The notes: generated by a model from the letters alone, not told the origin. Shown: positions 1 to 12,166, counted from the stretch's first letter. The stretch is 12,166 nt of DNA from Bacilli bacterium (GCA_045597865.1 JAZLKX010000017.1:1-12166), one strand, 5' to 3'. Numbers and translations are program-made.

Positions 1-59
1 AGACAAGACAAGACAAGACAAGACAAGACAAGACAAGACAAGACAAGACAAGACAAGAC
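1..59 (+). repeat. Terminal tandem pentamer array (AGACA)11 + AGAC
   Basis: Read directly from the sequence. Confidence 0.98.
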
Positions 60-141
60 CTATACCATATAGGGAAACTATACAGTATAGGCCAATAGAG
101 ATAGGATAAGATTATAGAGATCTATCATAGACTTGGACAAA
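1..141 (+). repeat. Left inverted terminal repeat (141 bp)
   Basis: 1..141 is the exact reverse complement of 12026..12166; identity breaks at 142/12025. Confidence 0.97.
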
Positions 142-1239
142 AGCATGTTCAAAGTCTGATCCTGTCAAATCATCTAAATATAATGTATGATTATTCATCA
201 TAGAACTACTTATTAGTTTTATTAGTTTTCTAGCTGGTGGTAAATCAGAAGTATAATTATAGTGTTTGAAATTAGGAATAGTAGGTTTATCAGTTAGAGT
301 AAAATACTCTAATCTCTTAGCTAATCTATCAGGACTTACATATAACCATATACCATCATTCTTCTCAACAGCGTAGCAATATAATCTATATTGTTCAGCT
401 TCTAATATAATTCCGATATTAGGTAATATATCATTATAAAAGTCATCTAAATTGAACTAAGGATATGCTCCTACTTGCCATTGTCCTTTTACGATCATAT
501 CTTGTCTTTGATTATTGAACGTAAAGAACGATCTAGACTCATTACTTTGATTTACGGGATTACAATATTCAATAGCTACACTATTTTCTACGCCATTCTC
601 GCCCATATAGCTATATCTTTGTATCTGTCCAATGTGTAAGTCGCGCACATTGATATTCATTTCAGCTAAGATTTGGTTATTGCGGTTTACGGTATTACCT
701 AACATATATACTACCATATTTTCTCTATTACGCTTTATAGTAGATATAAAGTTCAAGAATAACTCAAACTCGCCTTTTAGCTCAAATTGGTTTGGCCCAA
801 CTAAGAACTCTTCATAACAAATAGTGTCTACGTTTGGATAAGATACCGATTTATCATAGGTACTTTGGTTTAGCGCAAAGTAATATCCAATAGTGCCTAG
901 ATTTTCTTTTTTACTAGGACTATCTTCGTTGAAACCTAAGATCTGCCATTCACCTTTATAAGTCTTTATATAGAAATGATCATAACCAAATCTTTCATTT
1001 AGTCTTTCCTACATATAGCCGTTCAAATCATTCCAATAGTTGCCGACTCTCTTGGTTTCTATTTCTTCAGCTAAGCGACGAAGATAAGCAAATTGTTTTC
1101 CTGTTTCTAGCCAATGATCAAATGCCTATTTCTTATAAGCATAAGTTTTACCATTACCACGTCCACCAATAGCAATGCGGTAATTAGCTTTTGTTTCATT
1201 TAGCTAATCTAAACTATACCATTTTATTTCTTTACTCAT
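112..1239 (-). CDS. DNA packaging ATPase, phi29 gp16-like (375 aa with TAG read as sense)
   Basis: ATG at 1239 overlaps the upstream TGA (ATGA). Reads MSKEIKWYSLD*LNETKANYRIAIGGRGNGKT (Walker A), QFAYLRR, SYPNVDTICYEEF (Walker B), FISTIKRNRENMVVYMLGN. In-frame TAG at 1204-1206, 1126-1128, 1009-1011 and 457-459; ends at TAA 112-114. Confidence 0.93.
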
Positions 1240-1994
1240 TTCTTCCTCGTCGCACTCCAATCTACGCTCTTTCTGTGCTCAGCTTTTACCATAGCCTTTT
1301 GATATGGATCTAATCTATCATTATACATACCTTTTTCAATATTCTTTGCTATGCGGGTGTCGCCATTTGCTTCGTATAACGAGTCAAACTCTCCGCTTTG
1401 CTTCATTAGTCTCCAAGTCAAATCAAGTGGTTCATCTGTGCGGTAATTTTCATAAATCCAGTTTGCGATATCCGTAGTTGGTAAAGCACGCATAGAGCTA
1501 TTATTACAATAGGCTTCAATAATCTCTTCACTTGGAACACCACTACCACGTAGCTTGTTCAATAAAACTCGTAATTTGTCCATTTCGGCGCCGCTTAGCA
1601 TTTTTGGTTCATATCCACGTTCTTTCAAAGCTTTTGCCAAATTTTCATTACCTCGTTCTCGCATAGCTCTTAGTCCAGCTACAGAACTTTTAGCACTTCT
1701 AAGTGCTATTGCTAATTCTTTGACTCGTCTTCTAGCTTCGTTGATTTCGGCAGAGCCACTAGTATCAAACTCGCTAACTTCGCCAAATACACCGAAAATT
1801 TCATCGCTTACAGCGGTTTTGATAGCTACGCCTTGTAAATAAGATATACCAATCTCAGCTTCGTACTCTACATTCTACATTGCGGATTGAATTTCATATA
1901 GCTATTTATTCAATTGCTGACTATATTTATCAATATACTCATTCAATTCTTGTAAGCTAAGTTTATCAATCTCTTGTTCAGTTAGAATTTTCAA
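1236..1994 (-). CDS. 252-aa helical protein, candidate terminal (primer) protein
   Basis: AAAGGAG RBS then TTG at 1994. Open into ORF 1236..1664 except for TAG at 1902-1904 and 1875-1877; ends TGA. The terminal-protein call is inferred only from size and context. Confidence 0.55.
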
Positions 1995-2011
1995 TAATTC
2001 TCACTCCTTTT

Positions 2012-2143
2012 TTAGTAATTTTTATAATATTCATCAATGGCGTCCCGCACTATATCAGATACAGAACTACCAGTCAATGATACTAAATATTCTAATTCAG
2101 CTTCTATTTCTTCAGTTAGCCGAACAGTTATTTTTTTGTTCAT
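2012..2143 (-). CDS. Ribbon-helix-helix (CopG/Arc-like) DNA-binding protein, 43 aa
   Basis: AAGGAG RBS; MNKKITVRLTEEIEAELEYLVSLTGSSVSDIVRDAIDEYYKNY, with beta-ribbon ITVRL and SVSDIVRDAI helix; not in the ORF track. Confidence 0.82.
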   Translation of the reverse strand: MNKKITVRLTEEIEAELEYLVSLTGSSVSDIVRDAIDEYYKNY

Positions 2144-2489
2144 TACCTGTCTCCTTTCTTATTGGGTGATTGTGGTAATATTCTCTTATGTTGTCTAATA
2201 AAGACATCCACTCCAAATTGTCTACATTATTATTCTTTGGATTTTCATCTATATGATTTACTGTTTTCAAATTATTGGGATTTGGCAAAAATGCTTGCGC
2301 GACTAGTTGATGAACATAATAGTTCTTACGGTTTCCGTTTTTACACAACATAACACGCAAATATCTATCGCCATTTCTACTACCCGCACTCAAAAATTTA
2401 TTTCGTCTATAACTCCAAACTTGTCCACGAGTATTCACTGCGTATAAGCCTTCATAACCTTTTATGTCTTTCATTTCACAAATCATCAT
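2112..2489 (-). CDS. NUMOD4-HNH homing endonuclease-like protein
   Basis: N-terminal KDIKGYEGLYAVNTRGQVWS (NUMOD4); YVHQLVAQAFLPNP...VNHIDENPKNNNVDNLEW (HNH). Confidence 0.92.
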   Translation of the reverse strand: MMICEMKDIKGYEGLYAVNTRGQVWSYRRNKFLSAGSRNGDRYLRVMLCKNGNRKNYYVHQLVAQAFLPNPNNLKTVNHIDENPKNNNVDNLEWMSLLDNIREYYHNHPIRKETGNEQKNNCSAN

Positions 2490-2719
2490 TCTAGTACCCC
2501 CAATCCTTCATCTAAATCCATAAGATAGTCTTCAAAAACGTAAAGTGCGATTCTTAGTTTTTCTGTTCTATCAGCTAACCATTCTTTTGTAGGCTCATCC
2601 TGCTCTTGGAAATAATCCAAGCAAGTGTCATTGTAGCGTTCTTTTAGCCAATCGTGATACTTCTTTAGTTCTGAAGTATTGCTTTCCTCAAGTTGTTGAT
2701 AAAATAAATTAGTGTCCAT
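2486..2719 (-). CDS. Hypothetical acidic helical protein, 77 aa
   Basis: AAAGGAG RBS inside the polymerase 3' end; overlaps both neighbours; ends TGA. Confidence 0.75.
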   Translation of the reverse strand: MDTNLFYQQLEESNTSELKKYHDWLKERYNDTCLDYFQEQDEPTKEWLADRTEKLRIALYVFEDYLMDLDEGLGVLE

Positions 2720-4250
2720 TTTTTATATCTCCTTTTTGTATAATATAGGTTAGTAAATCTAACTCTCTTTCTAATTGGCCACCAATAGTAAATGGTATTC
2801 CAATTTTCTTTTTATCTTCTATTTTATATCGTCCCGAATATTTAGCCGGTATGACGATAGGTTGTGTATAATCAATATCGTTCATTTTTAGATATTGAGT
2901 AGCACGTTTGCTGTTTAGGCCTGAACATTTTACTATACCGTTTTGAATATATTGTTTACAGCCATAACCCACGAATGAGACTTCTTCTTCTTCAAGCTCC
3001 CATTTTCCAAGAGTTGGATGTAATTTAGCTCTTTCCGCATTTTCTGCTTCTATAATTGCGGTTAGGGGTTTGAGCGATTTGATACTATCTGTATCCCAAT
3101 ATATGGCGCGAGGGCCTGCTTTATAGAGCATCCGCATCAAATCATATCTTCCGTAGCTTGCTGTCCATAGCCCTATTACCCACGGCCGCATTTTATTATT
3201 TGCTTCTTCTAACGTTTTATTATAACGAAGCGGATCTTGCGTAAATAAACCAAAAATACTATTTAGTAAAATCTTTGCTTTTTTATAAGCTTCTGAACCT
3301 TTTGGTTCATTTTCTTTTATATCAAATTGTGTTTTGATTAGTTCTCGAAGTGGTTCCCACAATTTACCTTTGATAGCGTGATATCCAAAAGCAGGAAGTC
3401 TTTTTATTTTGAAATCATATCCCATTTTCAATATTTCATAATCTACTTTAGTTAGCACTGGATACCGTGTTGCTTCAATTTTCAAAAAGTCAATCCCGCA
3501 CTTAGGCTTCACATATTCAAATTCAAATTGCGCTACCCATAAATATTTGTTATAATATTCTAATAATTCAGGTTTTACATTAGTTTTTACAGTCATTTTA
3601 CTCATTGGGAAATCTTGCGTCATCATTTCATAAGGATAACTACTCTTGATATCGTAAGCCCAAACTTTCGTGGGTTCATAAGTCCAACCGGGACTTATAT
3701 CACATAAACCACCACGATACAACTTTGAATATAAATCATAGCTATATTGATCTAATTGTAATTTTTTATATTCGTTTTTGAGTTCTAATTGTTCTAACAT
3801 TTTGCGGATCCGGCCAGTTTGCGTTTTCGGTAATCTATACATATATTTATATTCTTCTAAACCTTGCCGCACGCCCTCAACTATAATGTCTACTGGTTGT
3901 GAATCTTCATCTAAGCCAAGCTCTAAAGCCCATTCACTCAAATCGGTATAGCCGCAATAGTCTGTTGCTGAGCGAAGCGTTATATTATCAAAACCAGTTT
4001 TCATTATTTTGTTTTCATCCATTGAATTTTCTACTTTACAATTGAAATCTACTACACCTTCCAATAGGTAATAAGTAAGCGACAAATCAGCCATAAACAC
4101 TATCATTTCTTTATTTGTTATATCTTTTAGCGTTTGCGCGAAAGCTTCAAAACCTATTCCAGCATAATAGTTTTCATTTTCTTTTATTGTCCAACTTTCG
4201 TCGTCTTTTAGTTCGGCGCCTATTGGAACATTATAATATTTAGCTGGCAT
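2709..4250 (-). CDS. Family B DNA polymerase, protein-primed type, with apparently degenerate exonuclease domain
   Basis: YRGG, YDIKSSYP (motif A), KILLNSIFG (motif B), YWDTDS (motif C), LGKWELE, KQY. Confidence 0.93.
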   Translation of the reverse strand: MPAKYYNVPIGAELKDDESWTIKENENYYAGIGFEAFAQTLKDITNKEMIVFMADLSLTYYLLEGVVDFNCKVENSMDENKIMKTGFDNITLRSATDYCGYTDLSEWALELGLDEDSQPVDIIVEGVRQGLEEYKYMYRLPKTQTGRIRKMLEQLELKNEYKKLQLDQYSYDLYSKLYRGGLCDISPGWTYEPTKVWAYDIKSSYPYEMMTQDFPMSKMTVKTNVKPELLEYYNKYLWVAQFEFEYVKPKCGIDFLKIEATRYPVLTKVDYEILKMGYDFKIKRLPAFGYHAIKGKLWEPLRELIKTQFDIKENEPKGSEAYKKAKILLNSIFGLFTQDPLRYNKTLEEANNKMRPWVIGLWTASYGRYDLMRMLYKAGPRAIYWDTDSIKSLKPLTAIIEAENAERAKLHPTLGKWELEEEEVSFVGYGCKQYIQNGIVKCSGLNSKRATQYLKMNDIDYTQPIVIPAKYSGRYKIEDKKKIGIPFTIGGQLERELDLLTYIIQKGDIKNGH

Positions 4251-4253
4251 TCT

Positions 4254-4337
4254 TTAGTCCTCGATATATTTTTTAGCGATAATAGCCATAGGAATTGTGG
4301 CTAAGGCAACCCCTATAAAATAATAAATAGCAAACAT
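4254..4337 (-). CDS. Small single-pass membrane peptide, 27 aa
   Basis: AAAGGTG upstream; MFAIYYFIGVALATIPMAIIAKKYIED then TAA; fills the intergenic gap. Confidence 0.6.
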   Translation of the reverse strand: MFAIYYFIGVALATIPMAIIAKKYIED

Positions 4338-4356
4338 TTCACATTTCACCTTTCTT

Positions 4357-4557
4357 TTATAATACTCGATAGTGATAACAACCATCATATTTTTCGGTTC
4401 TCTCAACTAAACCACGTTTTACCATAGCCGTCATAGTGGCTCCGGTAATCTTTTGTCCCGTCATTTCACTAAAGTCGCTAACACACCAATAGCGGTTGTT
4501 CATTAGTCTTTGCGGGATAGCGTTTTTGATTTCTTTGTGTAATTTGTTGTAATTCAT
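4357..4557 (-). CDS. Small winged-helix-like DNA-binding protein, 66 aa
   Basis: AAAGGA RBS; CVSDFSEMTG...TMTAMVKRGLVERT...HYRV resembles a wHTH. Confidence 0.6.
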   Translation of the reverse strand: MNYNKLHKEIKNAIPQRLMNNRYWCVSDFSEMTGQKITGATMTAMVKRGLVERTEKYDGCYHYRVL

Positions 4558-4579
4558 AATTATTTCCTTTCAAAATTAT

Positions 4580-4666
4580 TTATTTATTTATAAGCCAATC
4601 AACTAAAAGCGCTCCGGTGATAGCTCCAATTGTTGCGGAAGTCCAACCTAAGAAAAACATTAGCAT
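4580..4666 (-). CDS. Small hydrophobic membrane peptide, 28 aa
   Basis: AAAGGAG RBS; MLMFFLGWTSATIGAITGALLVDWLINK then TAA. Confidence 0.65.
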   Translation of the reverse strand: MLMFFLGWTSATIGAITGALLVDWLINK

Positions 4667-4842
4667 TTTGTATCTCTCCTTTTTTCAATTATTTTCAACA
4701 AAGGTAATTCTTCGAGCAAATCCCATATGTCATTGTCTAACATTGGCCTTTCTTCTTCTCGTCCTTCTGCATGTAAATAATAATCCATGCCTTCTGGCGA
4801 TAAGTAATCCATATCGTCGTCTACTGTAATTTTCTTTTTCAT
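4660..4842 (-). CDS. Hypothetical acidic protein, 60 aa
   Basis: AAAGGAG RBS before ATG 4842 (MKKKITVDDDMDY...); the track start at 4920 has no RBS. Confidence 0.7.
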   Translation of the reverse strand: MKKKITVDDDMDYLSPEGMDYYLHAEGREEERPMLDNDIWDLLEELPLLKIIEKRRDTKC

Positions 4843-4911
4843 AGCATTTTCTCCTTTTGGTTTTTTTGAAATTTGTAAGACATATATCTTTTCAAAAATA
4901 TATGTATAGCG

Positions 4912-5080
4912 GCTACCCACTAGGGGTAGCTCACCAATAGGAAGGAAATATAAAATTTGGTATGTAGGTGGGAGTCATCGCAAAATCAGCCCGGGTTGAA
5001 AGGCTTCCTTGTTTCGCTCGTCCCTAATTCGCTCCCGACGAATTTTATTCAGTGAAGGGTTTGAGGCCTTATTCACTTTC
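4912..5080 (-). ncRNA. Candidate structured RNA or long leader (possible pRNA equivalent)
   Basis: Starts just downstream of a promoter; non-coding; hairpins at 5051-5077, 5026-5044, 4988-5005 and 4912-4930. Confidence 0.35.
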
Positions 5081-5087
5081 TATATAT

Positions 5088-5116
5088 ATTATACAATATT
5101 TTTTTATAAAAATCAA
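5088..5116 (-). promoter_or_regulatory. SigmaA/sigma70-type promoter for the early/replication block
   Basis: TTGATT (5116-5111), 17-nt spacer, TATAAT (5093-5088). Confidence 0.75.
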
Positions 5117-5127
5117 ATAAAGGAGTC

Positions 5128-5156
5128 GTGAGGCCGGGTTCAACGGCCGGCCCCAC
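5128..5156 (-). terminator. GC-rich stem-loop, possible terminator or RNA element downstream of the structural operon
   Basis: GTGGGGCCGG-loop-CCGGCCTCAC, 10-bp stem with one G-U; the U-tract is offset and weak (GACTCCTTTATTT). Confidence 0.4.
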
Positions 5157-5279
5157 TATTAAGGAAGGAGTTTTATAATGACTTGTGAGGTTTTCCTTAC
5201 CTCACCATATATATATGAAAATACTGGAACTCAAATTTACTAGTTTTACCCAAAATTTTATAGAAATTTTTAGCAAATT

Positions 5280-6770
5280 TTAGTCGAGTATAAAAATACC
5301 AGAAGAGTTCAAAGTATCATCAACAGGACGTGTTCCTACAGACATACAACCCGTTGGGGATTTCAAACGAGCATTTGCGGTTTGAACATATCCACGCAAA
5401 GTAGATAGATTTCGCATATGATAATCTGGCTTACCGTACATAGCTTGAAAGTTATCTAAGTCTACTGGCTCATTCCAGACAAATTTAGCGCCACCTGTGT
5501 AGCCCGAATTGAAATCTGGATGGCCACCGGCAGAACCAGTCATAGAAGTTCCACCAATTTCAGATGTTTCTACCAATTGAGCAATTTGAGCTGCTGATTG
5601 GATCGCTCCGAAAGTAGCTGAAGCAGGTTTAGCGGATACCGTGGCAAGTTGCGCAACCATACCTATACCTTGAGAGGCATATTGTGCCCAAGAAACATAT
5701 GTGCTATCATAACCAAATGGGAACGTATTCGGCAAAGAAGCCAAAACAGTTATATCTTCTCGTGGGTTGCCATTTACCATAAGTATATACTTTACGGTTT
5801 GTCCAGTATAACTTACCGAAGGTAAATATCCTATACTCGTAATTTTATCTACATTTAGTTGACTTAGATTGCCTTCTATTTTAGCACCATTACGAATATT
5901 TAGGGTAAATGTTCCCTTTTTTCTATAACCATAAAGCTCAATACCACCCGAAGGAATATCGTAATAAACAGGATCGCAATAAGAATCGCTTACTGGAGCT
6001 GATGTGGGGACATTGCCCCAATATTCATAAGCTACATCGCCTTGTGGTAAATCTATACTCCACAAATCCGCACCCGATGATTCATATCTATATAAAGTAA
6101 TAGTATTTGTAGCTCTAATATCTTTTTTATTTATCAAATCAGCGGTTATCATTCCACAACCTAGGATACACTAACCAAATTCTTTTGAATGTTCTTCATC
6201 TGTTTCAAAATTTTCTGTAAAATCATACCACGCTTTTAGCGTAAAAATATAAGTAGCAACGCCATCTGGGGCGGCTAATCTTTGTGGATGTCCAGGATTA
6301 TAAACGGGATAAGAACATACATTAGCATATACAAAAATATAATCTCCGTTAGCATTATCGGGATATCTTTTAGGAGTTATCATATATTCAGAAGTAGCAG
6401 ATACTCTATCAAGATACTTAGCTCTATCATCAAATAAATAATCACTTCCAAGAGAAGAGTAGTTTACCATAGCCGTGTCATTGAAACAGCCATCGATCCA
6501 AGCCATTTCTAATATATCTTCTGTAATATAATATGTGTAAAGCCCATTCGCATTAGTAGAAGCCATAGTCCAACCACAATAAGTTAGATTATACTTCTCA
6601 TCTCTATAAACGCAATAATTACTCGGCCATTTTTCCGATAAAACGAAACTGGCGGAGCCAAAGTAGAAGTCGCCATAAACTTCGGCTTCTACTTCGACTA
6701 CTTTTGTTGAGTGATTTATTTTGTTTACGTCATTCTTGCGGCAAGGGCATTGATATAACGTAATTTTCAT
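5280..6770 (-). CDS. Tail protein (possibly phi29 gp9 tail-knob-like), 496 aa with TAG read as sense
   Basis: ORFs 6171..6770 and 5280..6152 are in one frame, separated only by TAG 6171-6173 (KEFG*CILGCGMIT). N-terminal MKITLYQCP and C-terminal MYGKP...GYVQTANA...LNSSGIFI resemble phi29-like tail proteins. Confidence 0.75.
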
Positions 6771-6775
6771 TTAGC

Positions 6776-7801
6776 TTATCCTCCAACAATAATCTGAGAT
6801 GTGAATCTAGGTTTATCTACCCAAAGAGTTAGTTCACTTGGAGTTGTATAGCCTAGTTCTTCACGAATAGCCTCGCCCGCAAATATAGTACTAAATATAG
6901 GAGTGATATTCTTGGTTGGGGCAGTAATTGTTAGAGATTGTAAAGCCAAACGGCTATTATATGAGTAATAAAGTGTATCATAAGCACCAGATACAGTATG
7001 CGCAGTTCTAATAATACATAAACTATTATATAAAACGCTTACGGCACGTCCAGTAGAATGAGCAACTTCAATATTTTGTGTTAGGCTATTGAACTTAGCT
7101 TGTGCGCCATTATTCAACTGAACCATACAATTTGTCTTAGTAATAGTTTCACCTTGATAATCAGTAGAATTCAAAACTAAGTAAGGACTTGTGCCGCCGC
7201 ACTTCCAATTTACATAGCTTGTATAGATGCTACAACCTTCAATAGTAATAGAACCACCTTGAACAGTATTATCAAAAGTACAGTTCTCAAAGTGTAAACG
7301 GCTATTATAAAACGTTAGTGTTTTAGTGCCTGTTTCTCTTACTACTGGTTGTAGTATATAAGCCTCAGGTGCGGGAGTGAAGCCAGTTTCCTTTTCGCCA
7401 TAAATGTGAAGTGTAATTCCACTAAATAAATATTTTACATAGTTGAAAGGATAAGTTCCAGGAGTAGTGAGTATAATAAACAAAGAGTTAGCTTCTTTAT
7501 TTAGAGTTTCAAGTGCCTTATCAACATTGCGGAAAGGCGTATTTTCTGTAAGGCCATCGTTTGTGTCATCACCGTTTAGGCAATCGACATAACGACGTGT
7601 ATAAGTGGAATCAATCCAATGATCATATTCAATGGCATCAATTCGTTCACCTAACGCCGCGATAGCTTCATCTTGCTCATCATTTTTCTCGTCAATACGA
7701 GCAACATCTTCTTGAAGTTCTTCAATAGCTTCTACTATTGGATCGCCATCAAGTTCTATATCTCTGTAGTAATGACTTCTATCAAATTCAGCAGGATTCA
7801 T
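6776..7801 (-). CDS. Tail spike / receptor-binding appendage with beta-helix, 341 aa
   Basis: GGAGG RBS before ATG 7801; N-terminal coiled coil; YVDCLNGDDTNDGLTENTPFRNVDKAL cap motif typical of pectate-lyase-like beta-helices. Confidence 0.75.
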   Translation of the reverse strand: MNPAEFDRSHYYRDIELDGDPIVEAIEELQEDVARIDEKNDEQDEAIAALGERIDAIEYDHWIDSTYTRRYVDCLNGDDTNDGLTENTPFRNVDKALETLNKEANSLFIILTTPGTYPFNYVKYLFSGITLHIYGEKETGFTPAPEAYILQPVVRETGTKTLTFYNSRLHFENCTFDNTVQGGSITIEGCSIYTSYVNWKCGGTSPYLVLNSTDYQGETITKTNCMVQLNNGAQAKFNSLTQNIEVAHSTGRAVSVLYNSLCIIRTAHTVSGAYDTLYYSYNSRLALQSLTITAPTKNITPIFSTIFAGEAIREELGYTTPSELTLWVDKPRFTSQIIVGG

Positions 7802-8021
7802 TATTGTCTGCCTCCATTTCAAGTTTTATTTCAATGCTCTCTAAACGAGCGTTAGTTTCTTTTTGATCGGCTTTTACGCCACATATTTCTTCTTTTACAC
7901 TAGTGATCAAGTCTTTTAGTTCGCTAATGATTTTTGAGTTGAACCACATAAAGTAAGCTAGGCAACCAATTGCGGCGCCATTATTTACCAATAGTGAAAC
8001 AATTGCTTCTATTGTTATCAT
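7788..8021 (-). CDS. Holin-like protein (one N-terminal TM helix plus coiled coil; BhlA/YvrJ-like)
   Basis: AAAGGAG RBS is best spaced to ATG 8021 (alternative ATG 8027); IVSLLVNNGAAIGCLAYFMWF followed by a charged coiled coil. Confidence 0.65.
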   Translation of the reverse strand: MITIEAIVSLLVNNGAAIGCLAYFMWFNSKIISELKDLITSVKEEICGVKADQKETNARLESIEIKLEMEADNNESC

Positions 8022-8033
8022 TGTCATTCTCCT

Positions 8034-8600
8034 TTACATGGACAACATGAAATAGTCGTCGAATTCGGCTAGATAACGTTCTTTCAAACGATATAATCTA
8101 GCATACATTTCTTCAGTAGATTCTTCAATAGCACCCAAGGTTTGAACACCGATGTTGCCATAAACGTGGCCATGGTGATCTAAGGCTCCGTCCGCACTAG
8201 TATTAGCGTTGGATTTACCTTCACTCTCACTTACTGGCTTTTTGATACCTTTGTCCATTGGGAATTGAGAACCAAGAGTGTCAGAGTTTACAGAACTTTG
8301 AGCTTTGTTTTTAGTTGCTTCTTCAATATCTTCAAAGCGATCATAGTTCCATAGTGGGTTTTCAGTCGTTTGTTCGGATAAACCGATTAGACTAAATAAT
8401 TTATTATAATGTTCAGCGAGCAAGTCGGCTCTAGCTTGAACCGCATAAGCCTAGGTATCTACATCTGGATAAGCCATTTCCTCAAAAGCAAAATGACGTT
8501 TCATCAAATCGCGCATTTTAGAGTCGTCTATCCAATCCAAATGGAACTCAATATTCAGAAATAGTTCCGGATGATCCTTCACTAAGTTGGGATAATACAT
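8034..8600 (-). CDS. Lower collar protein, phi29 gp11-like, 188 aa with TAG read as sense
   Basis: GAGGAGG RBS, ATG 8600; MKRHFAFEEMAYPDVDT*AYAV...HYNKLF; NPLWNYD; HGHVYGNIGV; EFDDYFM. TAG at 8451-8453. Confidence 0.85.
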
Positions 8601-9462
8601 TCTCAACTGCCTCCTCGCCACGTATTTTTACAGAAATTGAAGTGCCGAAAAGCTTATTGCACTCATCACAGGCTTTCTGTCTAGCCTCTAAGAAGTAAGC
8701 ACGGTTTACTAAGATTTCTTGATCGTTAGCATGAACTTCTGCGGTTAGGTTGCGCTCGCCTTTAGTAAGGTTTGCCGCACTCTCATTGATACCGAAGTGA
8801 ACAAAGAAATCATTTAGTACTGTCCGCATATCTTGTAAATATTTATCAGTAAGATAATCACTAGCGGTAGCATATACCGGGATAGAACCGTCATCTAAGA
8901 TAGAATCGGCAATACCTTTTTTGATAATTGTTCCCAACTTGCCGGCGTCCGCATCATCAACCATCTTACGAATTTGCTGAGCTTGAGCGTCTCCATTAGC
9001 AACGAATACTTTAGTTAGTCGGCTATTGGATAAGCCAACGTTCATTGAAGTTTGAATTTTAGCTAACTGACGCGCATAGTATTTTACGGTAGATAAAACA
9101 TTTACCGCGAATTTATTATTTTTGATCCAAACGCCATTGACACCAACAGTAGCATTGATATCATGTTTGAGCGCAGGGTTTACAATACGCAAGGCTGTTG
9201 GCTACATATAAACATCGAAGCCAGTCTTTGCGCAACGAAGGCCTCTAACTTTTCCTTGATCATCTTTTACGAATGCGGCCTGGCCTTCTGTCATAAGAAC
9301 CCACTCTAAATAATCAGGATTTATATCTCCGTTTTCAATCTCAGGGCCTTCCCATTGATACATTGAAACAACTTTGTTCCAAAGAACATTATACCAATAA
9401 GAAGCTAATTTGTCTTCTGGACGCCCACTTTTACAAAACGGATTAGCATTATCATATAACAT
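8548..9462 (-). CDS. Connector/portal (upper collar), phi29 gp10-like, 304 aa with TAG read as sense
   Basis: GGAGG RBS; MYQWEG...YLEWVLMTEGQAAF; GFDVYM*PT; FGINES...KGERNLTAEVHAND; ARQKACDECNKLFGTSISVK. The two track ORFs are joined in frame by TAG 9202-9204. Confidence 0.92.
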
Positions 9463-9480
9463 TGTTTACCTCCAATTCTG

Positions 9481-9531
9481 GGCCCGCCTTATAGGCTGTA
9501 GCCCGTAAAGGGCCGGGGGCCGAAGCCCCCG
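9481..9531 (-). promoter_or_regulatory. GC-rich multi-hairpin between capsid and connector genes
   Basis: CGGGGGC-TTCG-GCCCCCG (9531-9514), then GCCC-TTTAC-GGGC and GCCT-ATA-AGGC. Confidence 0.6.
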
Positions 9532-9561
9532 AATTTATATAAAAAGAGACAATGGAATTTA

Positions 9562-10716
9562 TTAGTTTAGAGTAAAGATAACTGCGTTAGCATCTTTATT
9601 CAAAATATATTTAGTCTGGACATTGATCCAGTTGTTGAAGTATTCACCACGTGCGTTGAAAGGAGTTGTGCGAACAGCTTCATGGCAAACATACTCACCG
9701 ATAGCATATTTGTCGAAAAGAACAGCAACGATTGGGCTGGACTCGGTTTCGCCTTCGATAGAAGAATCGCCAACAACGAAAGGATCATCTTCACGCTGCC
9801 AGAAAGGAACAACTTCATAATTGCCCATAGATTCTGGACGGCGAACATCTTGAACAACGTAAGTAGAGATACCGCCATCAAGAGCGCCAACAACCATTAG
9901 CTTCTGATCTTCATCTGTCTGAGGAGTGAAGGTTTTTGCGTCAGAAATGTTGTAGCTAGTAGATGGATGAGCAATCTTAGAACGAACAGTCTTGATTACG
10001 TGAACCGCAAACTTGACGAATTCGCCATTGTAAAGAGCGTTATCTTTAGTAAGAGAAGCGCCATAAGTGTCGTTGTAAAGGGAAACTAGAGGATAAGATT
10101 GAGCTGGTGCGTAAACAGACTCAGCTTCATCACTTTCAGCTTCAATAGCTTTGATAAGAGCGTCAACTAAACCAAGACGGCCTTCCTCACGAGCAAGCTC
10201 ATTACTATTCAAAGCATAGCGAATCTTAGCGTCTAAGAAACGATTCATTGCTTCTGGAGAAGCGAAAGCACCCTCGAGTTCAAGATACTGAATGGTGACT
10301 GGGATCTGATAAGCATTATCCTTTACGAAATACTGAACATTCTGGCCACCTTTGTTGATTACATACTGATCAACGGTTTCACCATCTTCTAACTTGACGA
10401 AAGCAGCTTCACGAGTCAAATAGAAGTTGTGAGTGATCATTTCGATAACGCCATTAGCGCTCATCTGTCCACGAATCAAAGAAGTGAACTTGCCGCTATA
10501 ATCACGAGCGGTATCGATAGAAAGTTTTACTTTGTTTGCGATTTCGATAGCAAAAGAGTTCATGAATTCCTGAACTTCAGCTTCAGTCATAGCAGAACCT
10601 AGTTTCTTACCAAAATCTACGAATGTAGTTTCATCAACGATTTCAGCAGCAGTACCACCAGTAGCGCGACTTACTAACTCGTTAACGGTTTTCCAAAAGT
10701 TATTATTAATTGCCAT
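9562..10716 (-). CDS. Major capsid protein, 384 aa
   Basis: GGAGG RBS; directly upstream of the connector; C-terminal TTPFNARGEYFNNWINV...NAVIFT resembles phi29-like capsid proteins; ends TAA TAA. Confidence 0.85.
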   Translation of the reverse strand: MAINNNFWKTVNELVSRATGGTAAEIVDETTFVDFGKKLGSAMTEAEVQEFMNSFAIEIANKVKLSIDTARDYSGKFTSLIRGQMSANGVIEMITHNFYLTREAAFVKLEDGETVDQYVINKGGQNVQYFVKDNAYQIPVTIQYLELEGAFASPEAMNRFLDAKIRYALNSNELAREEGRLGLVDALIKAIEAESDEAESVYAPAQSYPLVSLYNDTYGASLTKDNALYNGEFVKFAVHVIKTVRSKIAHPSTSYNISDAKTFTPQTDEDQKLMVVGALDGGISTYVVQDVRRPESMGNYEVVPFWQREDDPFVVGDSSIEGETESSPIVAVLFDKYAIGEYVCHEAVRTTPFNARGEYFNNWINVQTKYILNKDANAVIFTLN

Positions 10717-10776
10717 TTGAGTTTACCTCCAAAAAATTTTATTTTTTATAATTTGTGTGACGAGCCAATAGGCGAG

Positions 10777-11301
10777 TCACTTAGCGTATACATAATATTT
10801 TGTTCCTGCTGGGAAATTACCAGTAGAAGGGCTAATTGAGAATTTATCGAATTTATTGTGTAGGTGTCCTGTAGTAGCTGCTTGAACAAGTGCGGTATTG
10901 CTGTTAGCTGCGCCTGTATCAACGTGATAATAATCATCTGTAATCTTATCAACATGAATATCTATAACTCTACCCGCATTTGCTAATACAGTGCCGATAC
11001 TACCACTACCTACTTCATCTTGCCCATTGAAGAATCTAAAACTACCACCAACATTTCCTGATGTTCCAGTAGCAACTTCAATATGGATGATTGCGCAATC
11101 GCATCCATATAAACCATGTTCGATGCTAATAATATTAGACTCTTCTGATAGTGTTCCAGACTCTACTAGTTCTGCAGGTTTCTTCAAATTATCAACATCA
11201 GTATCTAGTTGCCCAACCTTATCATTGATACTATTGAGCACTTGCTTCATAAGATAAATTTCTTGTTCGGATAAATCCGAGGTCCATTCATTGAATAACA
11301 T
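10777..11301 (-). CDS. Putative head fibre/decoration protein, 174 aa
   Basis: GAGGTG RBS; short coiled coil then beta-rich domain ending FPAGTKYYVYAK; N-terminus paralogous to 11316..11729. Confidence 0.55.
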   Translation of the reverse strand: MLFNEWTSDLSEQEIYLMKQVLNSINDKVGQLDTDVDNLKKPAELVESGTLSEESNIISIEHGLYGCDCAIIHIEVATGTSGNVGGSFRFFNGQDEVGSGSIGTVLANAGRVIDIHVDKITDDYYHVDTGAANSNTALVQAATTGHLHNKFDKFSISPSTGNFPAGTKYYVYAK

Positions 11302-11315
11302 TTCAGTGTTTCACC

Positions 11316-11729
11316 TCACTTGTGGAATACTATATCAAACTCTACGCCCATACCAGAAGGTGATGTAGTAGAAAGTTCAATCTTATCTAATACACTAAAC
11401 TTCTGAATGGCATGAGGTGTATCAAATATTACACTACGAACTGTTCCACCTGAAGCACCATAAGAAAGGATACCATCTAGCATTTGATATAAAGTACCAT
11501 TAGCGAAAGTAAATGTATTAGCATCATTTAGTTTAGCAGTTACTTGCCCATCATAACTATCAGGTATCCGCAAACTAAAACCTGTATAAGGTCCTTCGAT
11601 TACTGTTGGTTCTGCTACAGTTACACGCACTAACTTAGATTCATTACTTGGCTTCAAAGCTTCTTCAATAGCTTGTTTCATCAACATGATTTCTTGTGCG
11701 GACGTACCATCAAATTTATTGAATTTCAT
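11316..11729 (-). CDS. Putative head fibre/decoration protein paralogue, 137 aa
   Basis: GGAGG RBS before ATG 11729; MKFNKFDGTSAQEIMLMKQ resembles MLFNEWTSDLSEQEIYLMKQ. Confidence 0.55.
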   Translation of the reverse strand: MKFNKFDGTSAQEIMLMKQAIEEALKPSNESKLVRVTVAEPTVIEGPYTGFSLRIPDSYDGQVTAKLNDANTFTFANGTLYQMLDGILSYGASGGTVRSVIFDTPHAIQKFSVLDKIELSTTSPSGMGVEFDIVFHK

Positions 11730-11730
11730 C

Positions 11731-11907
11731 TTAGTCTTCGCCTCCATCAACACCTAACCAAGCTAAGAACGGATCTTGAGTAGGTTTATTATTATTAGGT
11801 TCTGTAGATGGTTCTGTATTATTTAGCTTTTCTGTAAGTTGTGATACCTAAGCGGTTAGACTTGCTAAATCTTCAGCCATCTTATTCATAAGTTCTTGTG
11901 GTTCCAT
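11731..11907 (-). CDS. 58-aa coiled-coil protein, possible scaffolding protein (TAG read as sense)
   Basis: AAAGGAG RBS; MEPQELMNKMAEDLASLTA*VSQLTEKLNNTEPSTEPNNNKPTQDPFLAWLGVDGGED; TAG at 11848-11850; TAA stop lies 1 nt before the next ATG. Confidence 0.7.
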
Positions 11908-11945: not shown

Positions 11946-11974
11946 ATTATAACAAAAATTTTGACTTTTGTCAA
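11946..11974 (-). promoter_or_regulatory. Consensus sigmaA promoter for the structural operon
   Basis: TTGACA (11974-11969), 17-nt spacer, TGt-TATAAT (11951-11946) with extended -10. Confidence 0.88.
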
Positions 11975-12025: not shown

Positions 12026-12166
12026 TTTGTCCAAGTCTATGATAGATCTCTATAATCTTATCCTATCTCTATTGGCCTATACTGTATAGTTTCCCTATAT
12101 GGTATAGGTCTTGTCTTGTCTTGTCTTGTCTTGTCTTGTCTTGTCTTGTCTTGTCTTGTCTTGTCT
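12026..12166 (-). repeat. Right inverted terminal repeat (141 bp)
   Basis: Exact reverse complement of 1..141. Confidence 0.97.
12108..12166 (-). repeat. Terminal tandem pentamer array (TGTCT)n, i.e. AGACA on the minus strand
   Basis: Read directly from the sequence. Confidence 0.98.

Follow-up and report, generated by a model that had tools for sequence, protein, structure and literature searches.

The closest described cases of TAG used as a sense codon are the gut phages said to follow code 15, which include the crAss-like, Lak, Garnet, Amethyst and Topaz clades (Borges preprint, 10.1101/2021.08.26.457843; Peters et al. 2022, PMC9523058). The smallest recoded clade given in the Borges preprint measures 22 ± 3 kb. 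The same source detects TAG suppressor tRNAs in only 40% of TAG-recoded phages and finds recoding concentrated in structural and lysis genes, and Gulyaeva et al. (PMC9610469) report a suppressor tRNA in 13% of 285 recoded phages. A second group of relevance comprises the small phi29-like phages of 11-13 kb, such as Amedibacillus phages AD70P2 and AD70P3, Salmonella phage astrithr and its kin, and Acinetobacter phage Phanie; IMG/VR holds hundreds of small phi29-like contigs in this size range. The terms "genetic code", "stop codon" and "recod" appear nowhere in the text of a 2024 review of phi29-like phages (PMC11476376).

The window that we analyzed is a whole contig of 12,166 nt, a linear phi29-like genome with every gene on the minus strand. 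Judged by its genes and ends, the genome is close to complete and belongs to a small podophage that is phi29-like and protein-primed. The phi29-type Pfam set is present (Gp16 ATPase, PF05894; Phage_connector, PF05352; Phi29_MCP, PF25622; DNA_pol_B_2), and the protein-primed type of the family-B polymerase is indicated by DNA_pol_B_2 above cut-off (E 6.8e-8) and PHROG 1907 (E 1.9e-26), the Pfam and PHROG scans having taken in 16 proteins. The gp9 tail-knob fold of a 496-aa protein was recognized by Foldseek (E 3e-13), and gp10 and gp16 by PDB sequence matches. Together with the inverted terminal repeats (ITRs), these results bear out the phi29-like identity first proposed in a sequence-only reading of this DNA. 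The features are as follows.

1..141, no strand: left ITR, 100% complementary to 12026-12166; (AGACA)n fills bases 1-59
112..1239, minus: packaging ATPase of phi29 gp16 type, 375 aa (Pfam, PHROG, PDB); TAGs at 1204-1206, 1126-1128, 1009-1011 and 457-459 (codons 12, 38, 77 and 261)
1236..1994, minus: TP-like protein, 252 aa, named from position only, between the ATPase and the PolB region; TTG start at 1994 with AAGGAG 8-9 nt upstream; TAGs at 1902-1904 and 1875-1877 (codons 31 and 40)
2012..2143, minus: 43-aa ORF (ORF call)
2112..2489, minus: HNH endonuclease, 125 aa, TAG-free (Pfam HNH_3 and NUMOD4; PHROG 59, E 5e-39)
2486..2719, minus: 77-aa ORF, no Pfam or PHROG match
2709..4250, minus: family-B DNA polymerase (PolB), 513 aa, TAG-free (DNA_pol_B_2; PHROG 1907)
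4357..4557, minus: 66-aa ORF, no Pfam or PHROG match
4660..4920, minus: 86-aa ORF, no Pfam or PHROG match; GTG start without a ribosome-binding site, the true start probably being an internal ATG
4846..5116, minus: promoter-like site (5116-5088, TTGATT-17-TATAAT) with an untranslated, structured leader, located in the sole long gap
5280..6770, minus: tail knob protein with phi29 gp9 fold, 496 aa (AlphaFold and Foldseek); TAG at 6171-6173 (codon 200)
6776..7822, minus: second tail protein, 348 aa, TAG-free; weak PHROG hydrolase and tail fibre matches (E 4e-6 to 6e-4)
7788..8027, minus: 79-aa protein in which inspection by eye suggests a single hydrophobic stretch; no Pfam or PHROG match; homologous ORFs at the equivalent place in relatives L139-L142
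8034..8621, minus: protein at the lower-collar position, 195 aa (position and homology; no family match); TAG at 8451-8453 (codon 57)
8548..9462, minus: connector (portal), phi29 gp10, 304 aa (Pfam and PDB); TAG at 9202-9204 (codon 87)
9562..10716, minus: major capsid protein (MCP), 384 aa, TAG-free (Pfam Phi29_MCP, E 6e-21); CAG used 11 times, CAA twice
10777..11301, minus: 174-aa ORF, no Pfam or PHROG match
11316..11753, minus: 145-aa ORF, no family match; real start probably the ATG near 11729
11731..11907, minus: 58-aa first gene of the structural operon, "scaffold-like" from position only; AAAGGAG ahead of the ATG; TAG at 11848-11850 (codon 20)
11946..11974, minus: sigma-70-type promoter match upstream of the structural genes, by consensus only (TTGACA-17-TATAAT with TG, 12/12)
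12026..12166, no strand: right ITR, perfect 141-bp partner of the left arm

Perfect ITRs of 29-523 bp occur in 51/80 relatives. The 141-base ITR length equals the direct overlap at the ends of C52, a 266-kb circular element in the same bin; therefore, the repeats were probably truncated by the word size of the assembler, and the phage genome may in truth extend beyond them. An Rfam search of the window for prohead RNA (pRNA) gave no match at E ≤ 1. The 237-nt leader folds with z = -2.4, equalled by 3/200 shuffles, and is a candidate pRNA or leader.

The ten in-frame TAGs in six genes that had been listed from the sequence alone were recovered at exactly the same coordinates, each given as the lowest position of CTA on the plus strand. 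Also borne out, over 18 ORFs, was the absence of frameshifts and of in-frame TAA or TGA. The claim that 20 called genes all end in TAA or TGA stood in its substance, since the 18 terminators comprise 11 TAA, 7 TGA and no TAG, but not in its number, as 17-18 genes were called here. An eleventh TAG, at 4407, is codon 3 of a weak 53-aa ORF and was excluded from the count; it probably lies upstream of the real start of that ORF. TAG makes up 26% (202/767) of the off-frame stop triplets in the phage genes, and the chance that all ten in-frame stops would be TAG is P = 1.6e-6. A C-to-T artefact should also have affected the 95 CAA and 13 CGA codons (P = 6e-7). The comparison of coding density with TAG as stop and as sense, which the sequence-only reading had put forward as a check, gave a rise in the gene frames from 0.80 to 0.91, and the cover of stop-to-stop ORFs of at least 600 nt rose from 0.49 to 0.67. 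This gain in cover is at most 0.043 in 17/18 other contigs of at least 10 kb in the same assembly, and in the exception, C13, it reflects the fusion of adjacent bacterial genes. TAG closes 46/441 genes in the relatives, and its absence from 18 terminators is not significant alone (P = 0.14). The TAGs fall in structural genes (four), the packaging ATPase (four) and the TP-like gene (two); every gene without TAG is intact with a ribosome-binding site. With ten events only, the lack of TAG in PolB and MCP is not significant.

At each of the ten TAGs (10/10), the alignment to an intact gene or protein from a standard-code relative continues through the site. The ATPase matches Pfam Podovirus_Gp16 (E 1.2e-17) in a single stretch that takes in the Walker A motif and three TAGs, those at codons 12, 38 and 77, as well as PHROG terminase (E 1e-31) and PDB 7jq6 (E 3.9e-15), and its homologues measure 360-380 aa with 93-97% coverage. 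The connector matches Phage_connector in a single stretch (E 2e-28, residues 21-282) and phi29 gp10, PDB 1h5w (E 4.6e-24, residues 22-300). The tail knob model (pLDDT 73.6) resembles phi29 gp9 (5fb5), C1 gp12 and the Andhra tail knob, and its homologues of ~480-510 aa align end to end. Residues 4-162 of the TP-like protein share 30% identity, ungapped across both TAGs, with the ORF between ATPase and PolB in L139, the closest DNA relative; the protein has no Pfam or PHROG family match and no homologue beyond that ORF. The protein at the lower-collar position, whose fold model (pLDDT 49.7) is too poor for use, is 37-38% identical over its full length to the post-connector ORF in L139-L142 and to L001. 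The 58-aa gene aligns ungapped through its TAG with a 63-aa ORF at the equivalent place in L139. Homology thus upholds the earlier claim that read-through is needed for whole ATPase, connector, tail knob and other proteins. A public protein collection already includes three products of this contig in read-through form: the 375-aa ATPase, the 304-aa connector and the 496-aa tail knob.

The relatives, in contrast, keep the standard code. Among 124 related contigs, TAG falls inside a conserved-gene match in 0/80 IMG/VR loci and 0/44 metagenome loci, and in all of those examined it is a stop or unused. The nearest relatives with DNA, the metagenome contigs L139, L141, L140 and L142, are 42-51% identical to this phage in ATPase, MCP and connector, share its structural gene order and carry homologous versions of its genes for the TP-like and lower-collar-position proteins and of the 58-aa gene. 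However, L139 and L141 have the replication module on the opposite strand, and in L139, L140 and L141 the lower-collar and tail-knob genes terminate in TAG. The intact homologues and the TAG stops of the relatives argue, on comparison of sequences, that TAG changed from stop to sense in the lineage of this phage. We found no recoded relative repeating the pattern, which is that of a single genome.

Overall, we interpret the contig as a near-complete phi29-like genome in which TAG is a sense codon, the ten TAGs lying in six genes that need translation, with a probability of roughly 0.78. None of the six proteins would then be made whole unless TAG is read, and decoding would have to be efficient because the ATPase alone has four TAGs. 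The phage is a further TAG-recoded phage, recoding of this kind being already known in larger genomes. Similar to the code 15 gut phages, it has in-frame TAGs in packaging and structural genes, avoids TAG as a terminator, has low GC and a likely host on the standard code, and suppressor tRNAs are often undetectable in those phages as well. Unlike them, it is linear and protein-primed with ITRs, has only ten TAGs, and leaves almost no unassigned space, which makes it very unlikely that the assembled part conceals a tRNA, RF2 or synthetase. Its description as unusually small holds against the smallest recoded clade, of which it is about half the size (Borges preprint), but not against the phi29-like group, for which 12 kb is normal. 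With the small phi29-like phages it has in common the size, the ITRs, the Gp16 ATPase, the family-B polymerase, the gp10 connector, the Phi29_MCP and the lack of tRNA genes, although its MCP is only 22-26% identical to those of isolates.

The residue inserted at TAG is less certain. Glutamine had been proposed from a segment of phi29 gp10, and the segment was given correctly: phmmer pairs fDVYM[TAG]PT with rDVYNQAT of gp10 (PDB 1h5w), which has Q at the connector TAG column. Over the ten sites the homologue columns score 5.33 bits for Q, 4.74 for K and 4.09 for E, whereas Y, L, F and W score -2.5 to -7.5 (six TAG columns). These scores point to a long polar residue, with Lys or Glu possible. 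The connector column holds F in six protein homologues (46-57% identity) and in the four nearest DNA relatives, and N, K, R, E, H and, twice, Q (CAG) in more distant homologues. In L139, nine of the sites are occupied by K, E, Y, L, R, E, M, F and A, with no Q; these include R and E at the TP-like columns, A at the 58-aa gene column, and M at the lower-collar-position column, which is also M in L140-L142. The sequence-only reading had looked to the homologue columns for a consistent residue; there is none, and glutamine fails on that count, a weak test because all ten sites are variable. A sense codon other than glutamine, most plausibly Lys or Glu inserted by a mutated host tRNA, is the strongest of the alternatives, and we consider it unlikely. 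It draws on the nearness of the K and E scores to that of Q, on ATPase codon 38, which is K in 8/11 nearest protein homologues and E (GAA) in L139, L141 and L142, on the lack of GlnRS in the binned Bacilli, and on the precedent of a mutated tRNA in Bacilli, the Bacillus subtilis tRNA-Lys suppressor sup-3, which inserts Lys at nonsense codons (PMC4824269). Against it stand the top column score of Q, the Q of phi29 gp10, the Q found at the tail column in 4/23 homologues and the account in the Borges preprint, in which TAG to Gln and TGA to Trp are the only reassignments seen where phage and host codes differ. On phage precedent and the thin lead in the homologue columns, glutamine is probably the residue.

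We then consider how TAG might be read. Searches of the window for tRNAs, the leader gap 4846..5116 included, gave none under either default or relaxed settings, and the only canonical U-CUA-R loop falls within the ATPase gene. Suppressor tRNA(CUA) or code-change genes are frequent, not universal, in code 15 phages; this assembled contig has none, and no RF2, synthetase or other code-change family was detected among the 16 scanned phage proteins. The 62 tRNAs of the bin include no anticodon CUA, the other contigs contain no suppressor tRNA, C52 with its 18 tRNAs included, and 0/60 relatives carry a tRNA of any kind. Because neither contig nor bin yields a decoder, it would act in trans or lie in the unassembled termini. 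Both release factors are encoded by the co-binned bacterium (RF1, 499 bits; RF2, 481 bits), in which TAG closes 125/828 (15%) of the long ORFs. The bacterium has GatB and no GlnRS above cut-off; therefore, the mischarging by GlnRS that has been suggested for other recoded phages would not operate there, and the likely host class, without GlnRS, differs in this from those of the code 15 gut phages.

In its simplest form, the decoder would be a tRNA with anticodon CUA encoded outside the assembled 12.2 kb: in the true host, in a prophage or a recoded phage infecting the same cell, or in the outer stretch of the terminal repeats beyond the assembly. In a post hoc test, the TAGs are biased to the 5′ ends of genes (mean relative position 0.26; P = 0.004 against uniform, and P = 0.0007 relative to the 56 CAA/CAG codons in those genes). 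The bias fits a gate, in which translation of packaging and structural genes would abort early without suppression. We speculate, tentatively, that the phage has no translational hardware of its own, and that it borrows a suppressor from a co-resident element or encodes a small protein that blocks RF1, the 5′ TAGs serving as gates. The RF1 blocker would be one of ~7 small unassigned proteins, with near-cognate host tRNAs then reading TAG. Such gates would hold back the packaging and structural proteins, at low cost, until the TAG-reading state arrives.

A related, doubtful alternative is that TAG keeps its stop function in the normal host and that the phage is conditionally viable, depending on an amber suppressor from a recoded prophage or co-infecting phage; the TAGs would then be a dependency or gate and not the phage's own code. 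The missing decoder on the contig and in the relatives, the standard code and RF1 of the binned bacterium and the 5′ bias all fit this, and sensing of same-code co-infecting phages is raised as a possibility in the Borges preprint. However, no such suppressor was found in the other contigs of the bin, and the alternative overlaps our preferred reading of TAG as a sense codon without excluding it.

We consider it highly improbable that the phage simply matches a true host with TAG as a sense codon or without RF1, its binning with this bacterium being accidental. The link between phage and bacterium is by binning only, no sequence of at least 16 nt is shared between the phage and the rest of the bin, and bin contamination is 5.4%. 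However, we know of no bacteria with TAG reassigned other than pyrrolysine users, and in the bin, which may not be the true host and to which this search was confined, PylS_Cterm scored at best 20 bits against a cut-off of 178, PylB had no match and tRNA-CUA was absent. Isolated relatives infect Bacillota, for example Amedibacillus, and MCP relatives occur in 5/400 other genomes of the same bacterial family; therefore, a standard-code Bacilli host is the plain expectation. We give least credence to a non-working code, whether a defective genome with many amber mutations or an assembly or sequencing artefact: the pattern is seen in one contig with no recoded relative, but the exclusive use of TAG, the untouched CAA and CGA codons, the lack of frameshifts, the other genes intact with ribosome-binding sites and the ITRs at both ends oppose it.

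Stop-codon recoding in phages has so far been described mainly in large genomes able to carry suppressor tRNAs, release factors and synthetases, and pipelines often omit alternative-code testing below 20 kb (Gulyaeva et al., PMC9610469). As a practical warning, table 11 calls the ATPase, portal and tail knob of this phage as fragments. A 12-kb genome with its genes accounted for and no decoder indicates that recoding reaches the smallest tailed phages. The question of the code switch is narrowed to a few small ORFs or a trans factor and is therefore experimentally tractable. If a borrowed suppressor or an RF1 block were true, a phage-specific genetic code would have its minimal known example in this phage.

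On the evidence of its genes, the reading of TAG as a sense codon in this phage holds. The sequence-only reading had listed ten in-frame TAG codons in six genes, and all ten were recovered at exactly the same positions: 1204, 1126, 1009 and 457 in the packaging ATPase gene, 1902 and 1875 in the gene for a terminal-protein-like (TP-like) protein, 6171 in the tail-knob gene, 8451 in the gene at the lower-collar position, 9202 in the connector gene and 11848 in the 58-aa first gene. It had also reported genes free of internal TAA and TGA and never ending in TAG. Both statements proved correct for the 18 ORFs that we retained (20 genes had been called earlier), none of which contains an in-frame TAA or TGA and which end in TAA (11) or TGA (7) but not TAG. 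An eleventh TAG (4407) was left out, being codon 3 of a doubtful 53-aa ORF. Translation table 11 breaks up all six genes, leaving 99 aa as the largest piece of the ATPase and dividing the connector into 86 and 214 aa. The proposed comparison of codes raised the coding density in gene frames from 0.80 (table 11) to 0.91 (TAG as sense). Because TAG makes up only 26% of the off-frame stop triplets (P = 1.6e-6 for ten out of ten in-frame stops being TAG) and because none of 95 CAA and 13 CGA codons shows conversion to TAA or TGA (P = 6e-7), chance and a C-to-T artefact are excluded as the source of the ten TAGs.

Homology runs through every one of these codons. In the ATPase, one unbroken Pfam stretch spans three TAGs together with the Walker A motif, and homologues of 360-380 aa align at 93-97% coverage. 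The connector is likewise covered by a single Pfam stretch (residues 21-282) and aligns with phi29 gp10 over residues 22-300, and the homologues of the tail knob are full-length. The lower-collar-position protein shows 37-38% identity, end to end, to the ORF that follows the connector in L139-L142, the nearest relatives with DNA. The TP-like protein, which starts at a TTG with AAGGAG upstream, had itself as its sole match in a collection of 5.8 billion proteins; its residues 4-162 align with the matching ORF of L139, and both TAGs are crossed ungapped. Finally, the alignment of the 58-aa first gene with its positional counterpart in L139, a 63-aa ORF, crosses the TAG. Therefore, as judged from these alignments, translation must pass the TAG at all ten sites.

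The description of the genome as that of a phi29-like phage was borne out by its gene set, its inverted terminal repeats (ITRs) and the fold of its tail knob. The window of 12,166 bases is a complete contig (C17), one of 58 in a metagenome-assembled genome of 1.74 Mb, and its minus strand carries all genes. Pfam and PHROGs identified a gp16-type packaging ATPase, an HNH endonuclease, a family-B polymerase, a gp10 connector and a phi29-type capsid protein. A 496-aa protein has the fold of the phi29 gp9 tail knob (predicted model pLDDT 73.6; Foldseek E 3e-13), and the model of the lower-collar-position protein (pLDDT 49.7) was too poor for a structure search. The features outside the genes are as follows.

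1-141 and 12026-12166, both ends: perfect 141-bp inverted repeats, starting (AGACA)n.
4846-5279, the sole long non-coding stretch: two GC-rich hairpins that follow the tail-knob gene, a promoter-like site and a 237-nt leader.

Perfect ITRs of 29-523 bp are present in 51 of 80 relatives from IMG/VR. Since a second contig of the assembly, C52, is circular by a direct end overlap of equal length (141 bases), 141 is probably the word size of the assembler at which the phage termini were truncated, and the true ends may lie further out. Upstream of the structural genes stands a perfect match to TTGACA-17-TATAAT. Of 200 shuffled sequences, 197 fold less well than the 237-nt leader, and Rfam gave no match at E <= 1 anywhere in the window, 4846-5279 included; this stretch may be the location of a candidate pRNA, as used by gp16-type motors. 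The 174-aa (10777-11301) and 145-aa (11316-11753) proteins have N-termini that look alike by eye (..EQEIYLMKQ.. and ..AQEIMLMKQ..) and are possibly paralogues, for example head fibre or decoration proteins. The capsid gene (9562-10716) uses CAG 11 times, CAA twice and TAG not at all, and the remaining genome has 93 CAA and 13 CAG.

Phages of this size class are common: among the matches listed, 579 of 593 IMG/VR pattern matches encode a relative of the ATPase. The isolates Amedibacillus phage AD70P2 and Salmonella phage astrithr are phi29-like and of the same size class, with 22-26% identity in the major capsid protein (MCP). We found no close DNA relatives in IMG/VR (by MCP and connector alignment) or in GTDB genomes, and the relatives from a metagenome scan reached at most 51% identity. 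Within the matches to the window's proteins, none of the 80 IMG/VR loci contains a TAG and none of the 44 metagenome loci contains any stop. An in-frame TGA within the MCP match of L015, an IMG/VR locus, is the only stop inside any match among the 124 relatives. TAG terminates 46 of 441 homologous ORFs in these 124 loci, including the lower-collar gene and the tail-knob gene of each of L139, L140 and L141 (42-51% identity). Because the relatives terminate genes with TAG and lack internal TAG, the code would have changed in the lineage of this phage, which, as read from these comparisons, ceased to end genes with TAG and acquired it within them. The weight of this case lies in the in-frame sites rather than in terminator loss, as the absence of TAG from 18 terminators is not significant alone (P = 0.14). 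ORF cover suggested mild recoding in two relatives, L022 and L076, which we rejected since TAG in both is a genuine stop that closes genes. Also rejected was C13 (L138), another contig of the assembly. Although its ORF cover rose from 0.73 to 0.90, this contig is a piece of bacterial DNA (Na+/H+ antiporter, short-chain dehydrogenase, integrase, Mrr_N plus AAA), and reading through TAG does no more there than join adjacent genes. As to gene order, all genes of the window and of L142 point in one direction, whereas L139 and L141 resemble phi29 in carrying the ATPase-TP-PolB module in the orientation opposite to that of the structural genes.

Glutamine had been suggested as the inserted residue from a segment of phi29 gp10. 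The segment was given correctly, and DVYM[TAG]PT aligns with DVYNQAT; however, this part of the proposal stood only in part. At the connector column, six protein homologues (46-57% identity) and L139-L142 have F, and less closely related loci show N, K, R, E, H, D or A, with Q (CAG) twice. The four ATPase columns (51 homologues) hold mostly K/N/D/R, Y/K, E/L/V and H/L, respectively, and the tail-knob column (23 homologues) P (9), Q (4) and N (4). M occupies the lower-collar-position column in four relatives, and L139 supplies R and E for the TP-like columns and A for the 58-aa gene. Q occurs at one TAG column each in the two closest protein relatives, P0002 (ATPase, 59%) and P0122 (connector, 83%). 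Because Q in near relatives may itself be a translated TAG, these two and P0003, another near homologue, were excluded from the profile score. Summed over ten columns, the log-odds were 5.33 bits for Q, 4.74 for K, 4.09 for E, 1.82 for N and 1.62 for H; Y, L, F and W were strongly disfavoured (-2.5 to -7.5, six columns). Judged from these columns, the residue would be long and polar, and Gln, Lys and Glu are not separated. Glutamine is a reasonable default, its lead coming chiefly from phage precedent. The co-binned bacterium cuts against an easy glutamine: its best GlnRS score is 43.8 bits against a cut-off of 425.8 and GatB is present, which means that the indirect route supplies its Gln-tRNA. 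The classic nonsense suppressor sup-3 of Bacillus subtilis is a tRNA-Lys (PMC4824269).

As the ATPase has four TAGs, we infer that leakage past each of them at a level of a few per cent cannot give a useful yield of the protein, and decoding must therefore be efficient. ARAGORN found no tRNA in the window, with only implausible calls at relaxed settings, and the single canonical U-CUA-R anticodon loop lies within the ATPase gene; no tRNA gene was found in 60 relatives. In the bin, the anticodon CUA is absent from all 62 tRNAs, neither PylS nor PylB was found, RF1 and RF2 both score above the cut-off, 15% of long ORFs end in TAG and ORF cover fits the standard code. An 88-nt tRNA-like gene on contig C46 (43222-43309), directly after tRNA-Leu(UAA) and called 'gcaa' (Cys or Leu) by ARAGORN, was rejected as a TAG reader on account of its 8-nt anticodon loop with GCAA. 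The decoder would lie beyond the 12.2 kb assembled here, in the true host, in a prophage or a recoded phage that co-infects the cell, or in the missing outer ITR. The circular contig C52 (266,469 bp; GC 0.39, compared with about 0.34 for the bin) has large ORFs on one strand and 18 tRNA genes clustered over the junction, with no suppressor tRNA among them. In several of its 10-kb stretches, ORF cover gains 0.13-0.24 with TGA as sense. C52 may be a jumbo phage or a megaplasmid in which TGA is perhaps recoded in part.

Only binning connects the phage with the co-binned bacterium, and the phage shares no sequence of at least 16 nt, CRISPR-like or other, with the rest of the bin. By RF1 (98%), the genome closest to that of the bacterium bears the label Candidatus Fiminaster equi, among uncultured Bacilli with small genomes. 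Of 400 other genomes of the bacterium's family, 5 contain MCP relatives, at 22-27% identity.

The TAGs lie early in their genes: nine have relative positions of 0.03-0.40 and one of 0.69 (mean 0.26), whereas the mean positions of CAA, CAG, AAG and GAG are 0.46-0.53. In post hoc tests, this 5′ bias gave P = 0.004 relative to a uniform distribution and, with the CAA/CAG codons in these six genes as reference, P = 0.0007. The bias is consistent with a gate that cuts translation off early when there is no suppression, and equally with looser constraint on N-termini.

TAG-to-Gln recoding is established in gut phages (10.1101/2021.08.26.457843; PMC9523058). The smallest recoded clade described in the preprint averages 22 +/- 3 kb, compared with 12.2 kb here, and its supplementary tables could hold smaller ones (10.1101/2021.08.26.457843). 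Suppressor tRNAs are reported there for 40% of the genomes that recode TAG, and elsewhere for 13% of 285, with alternative codes tested at >=20 kb only (PMC9610469). Our literature search turned up no description of recoding among phi29-like phages (Picovirinae, Salasmaviridae), and the text of a 2024 review of these phages contains neither 'genetic code', 'stop codon' nor 'recod' (PMC11476376). A public protein collection already includes the read-through forms of this contig's ATPase, connector and tail knob, so some automatic gene caller applied a TAG-sense table; this is not a printed description. The phage joins the already-known TAG-recoded phages, and what sets it apart is its size and the lack of space for decoding machinery. 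A genome of 12.2 kb without room for decoder genes sharpens the question of mechanism.
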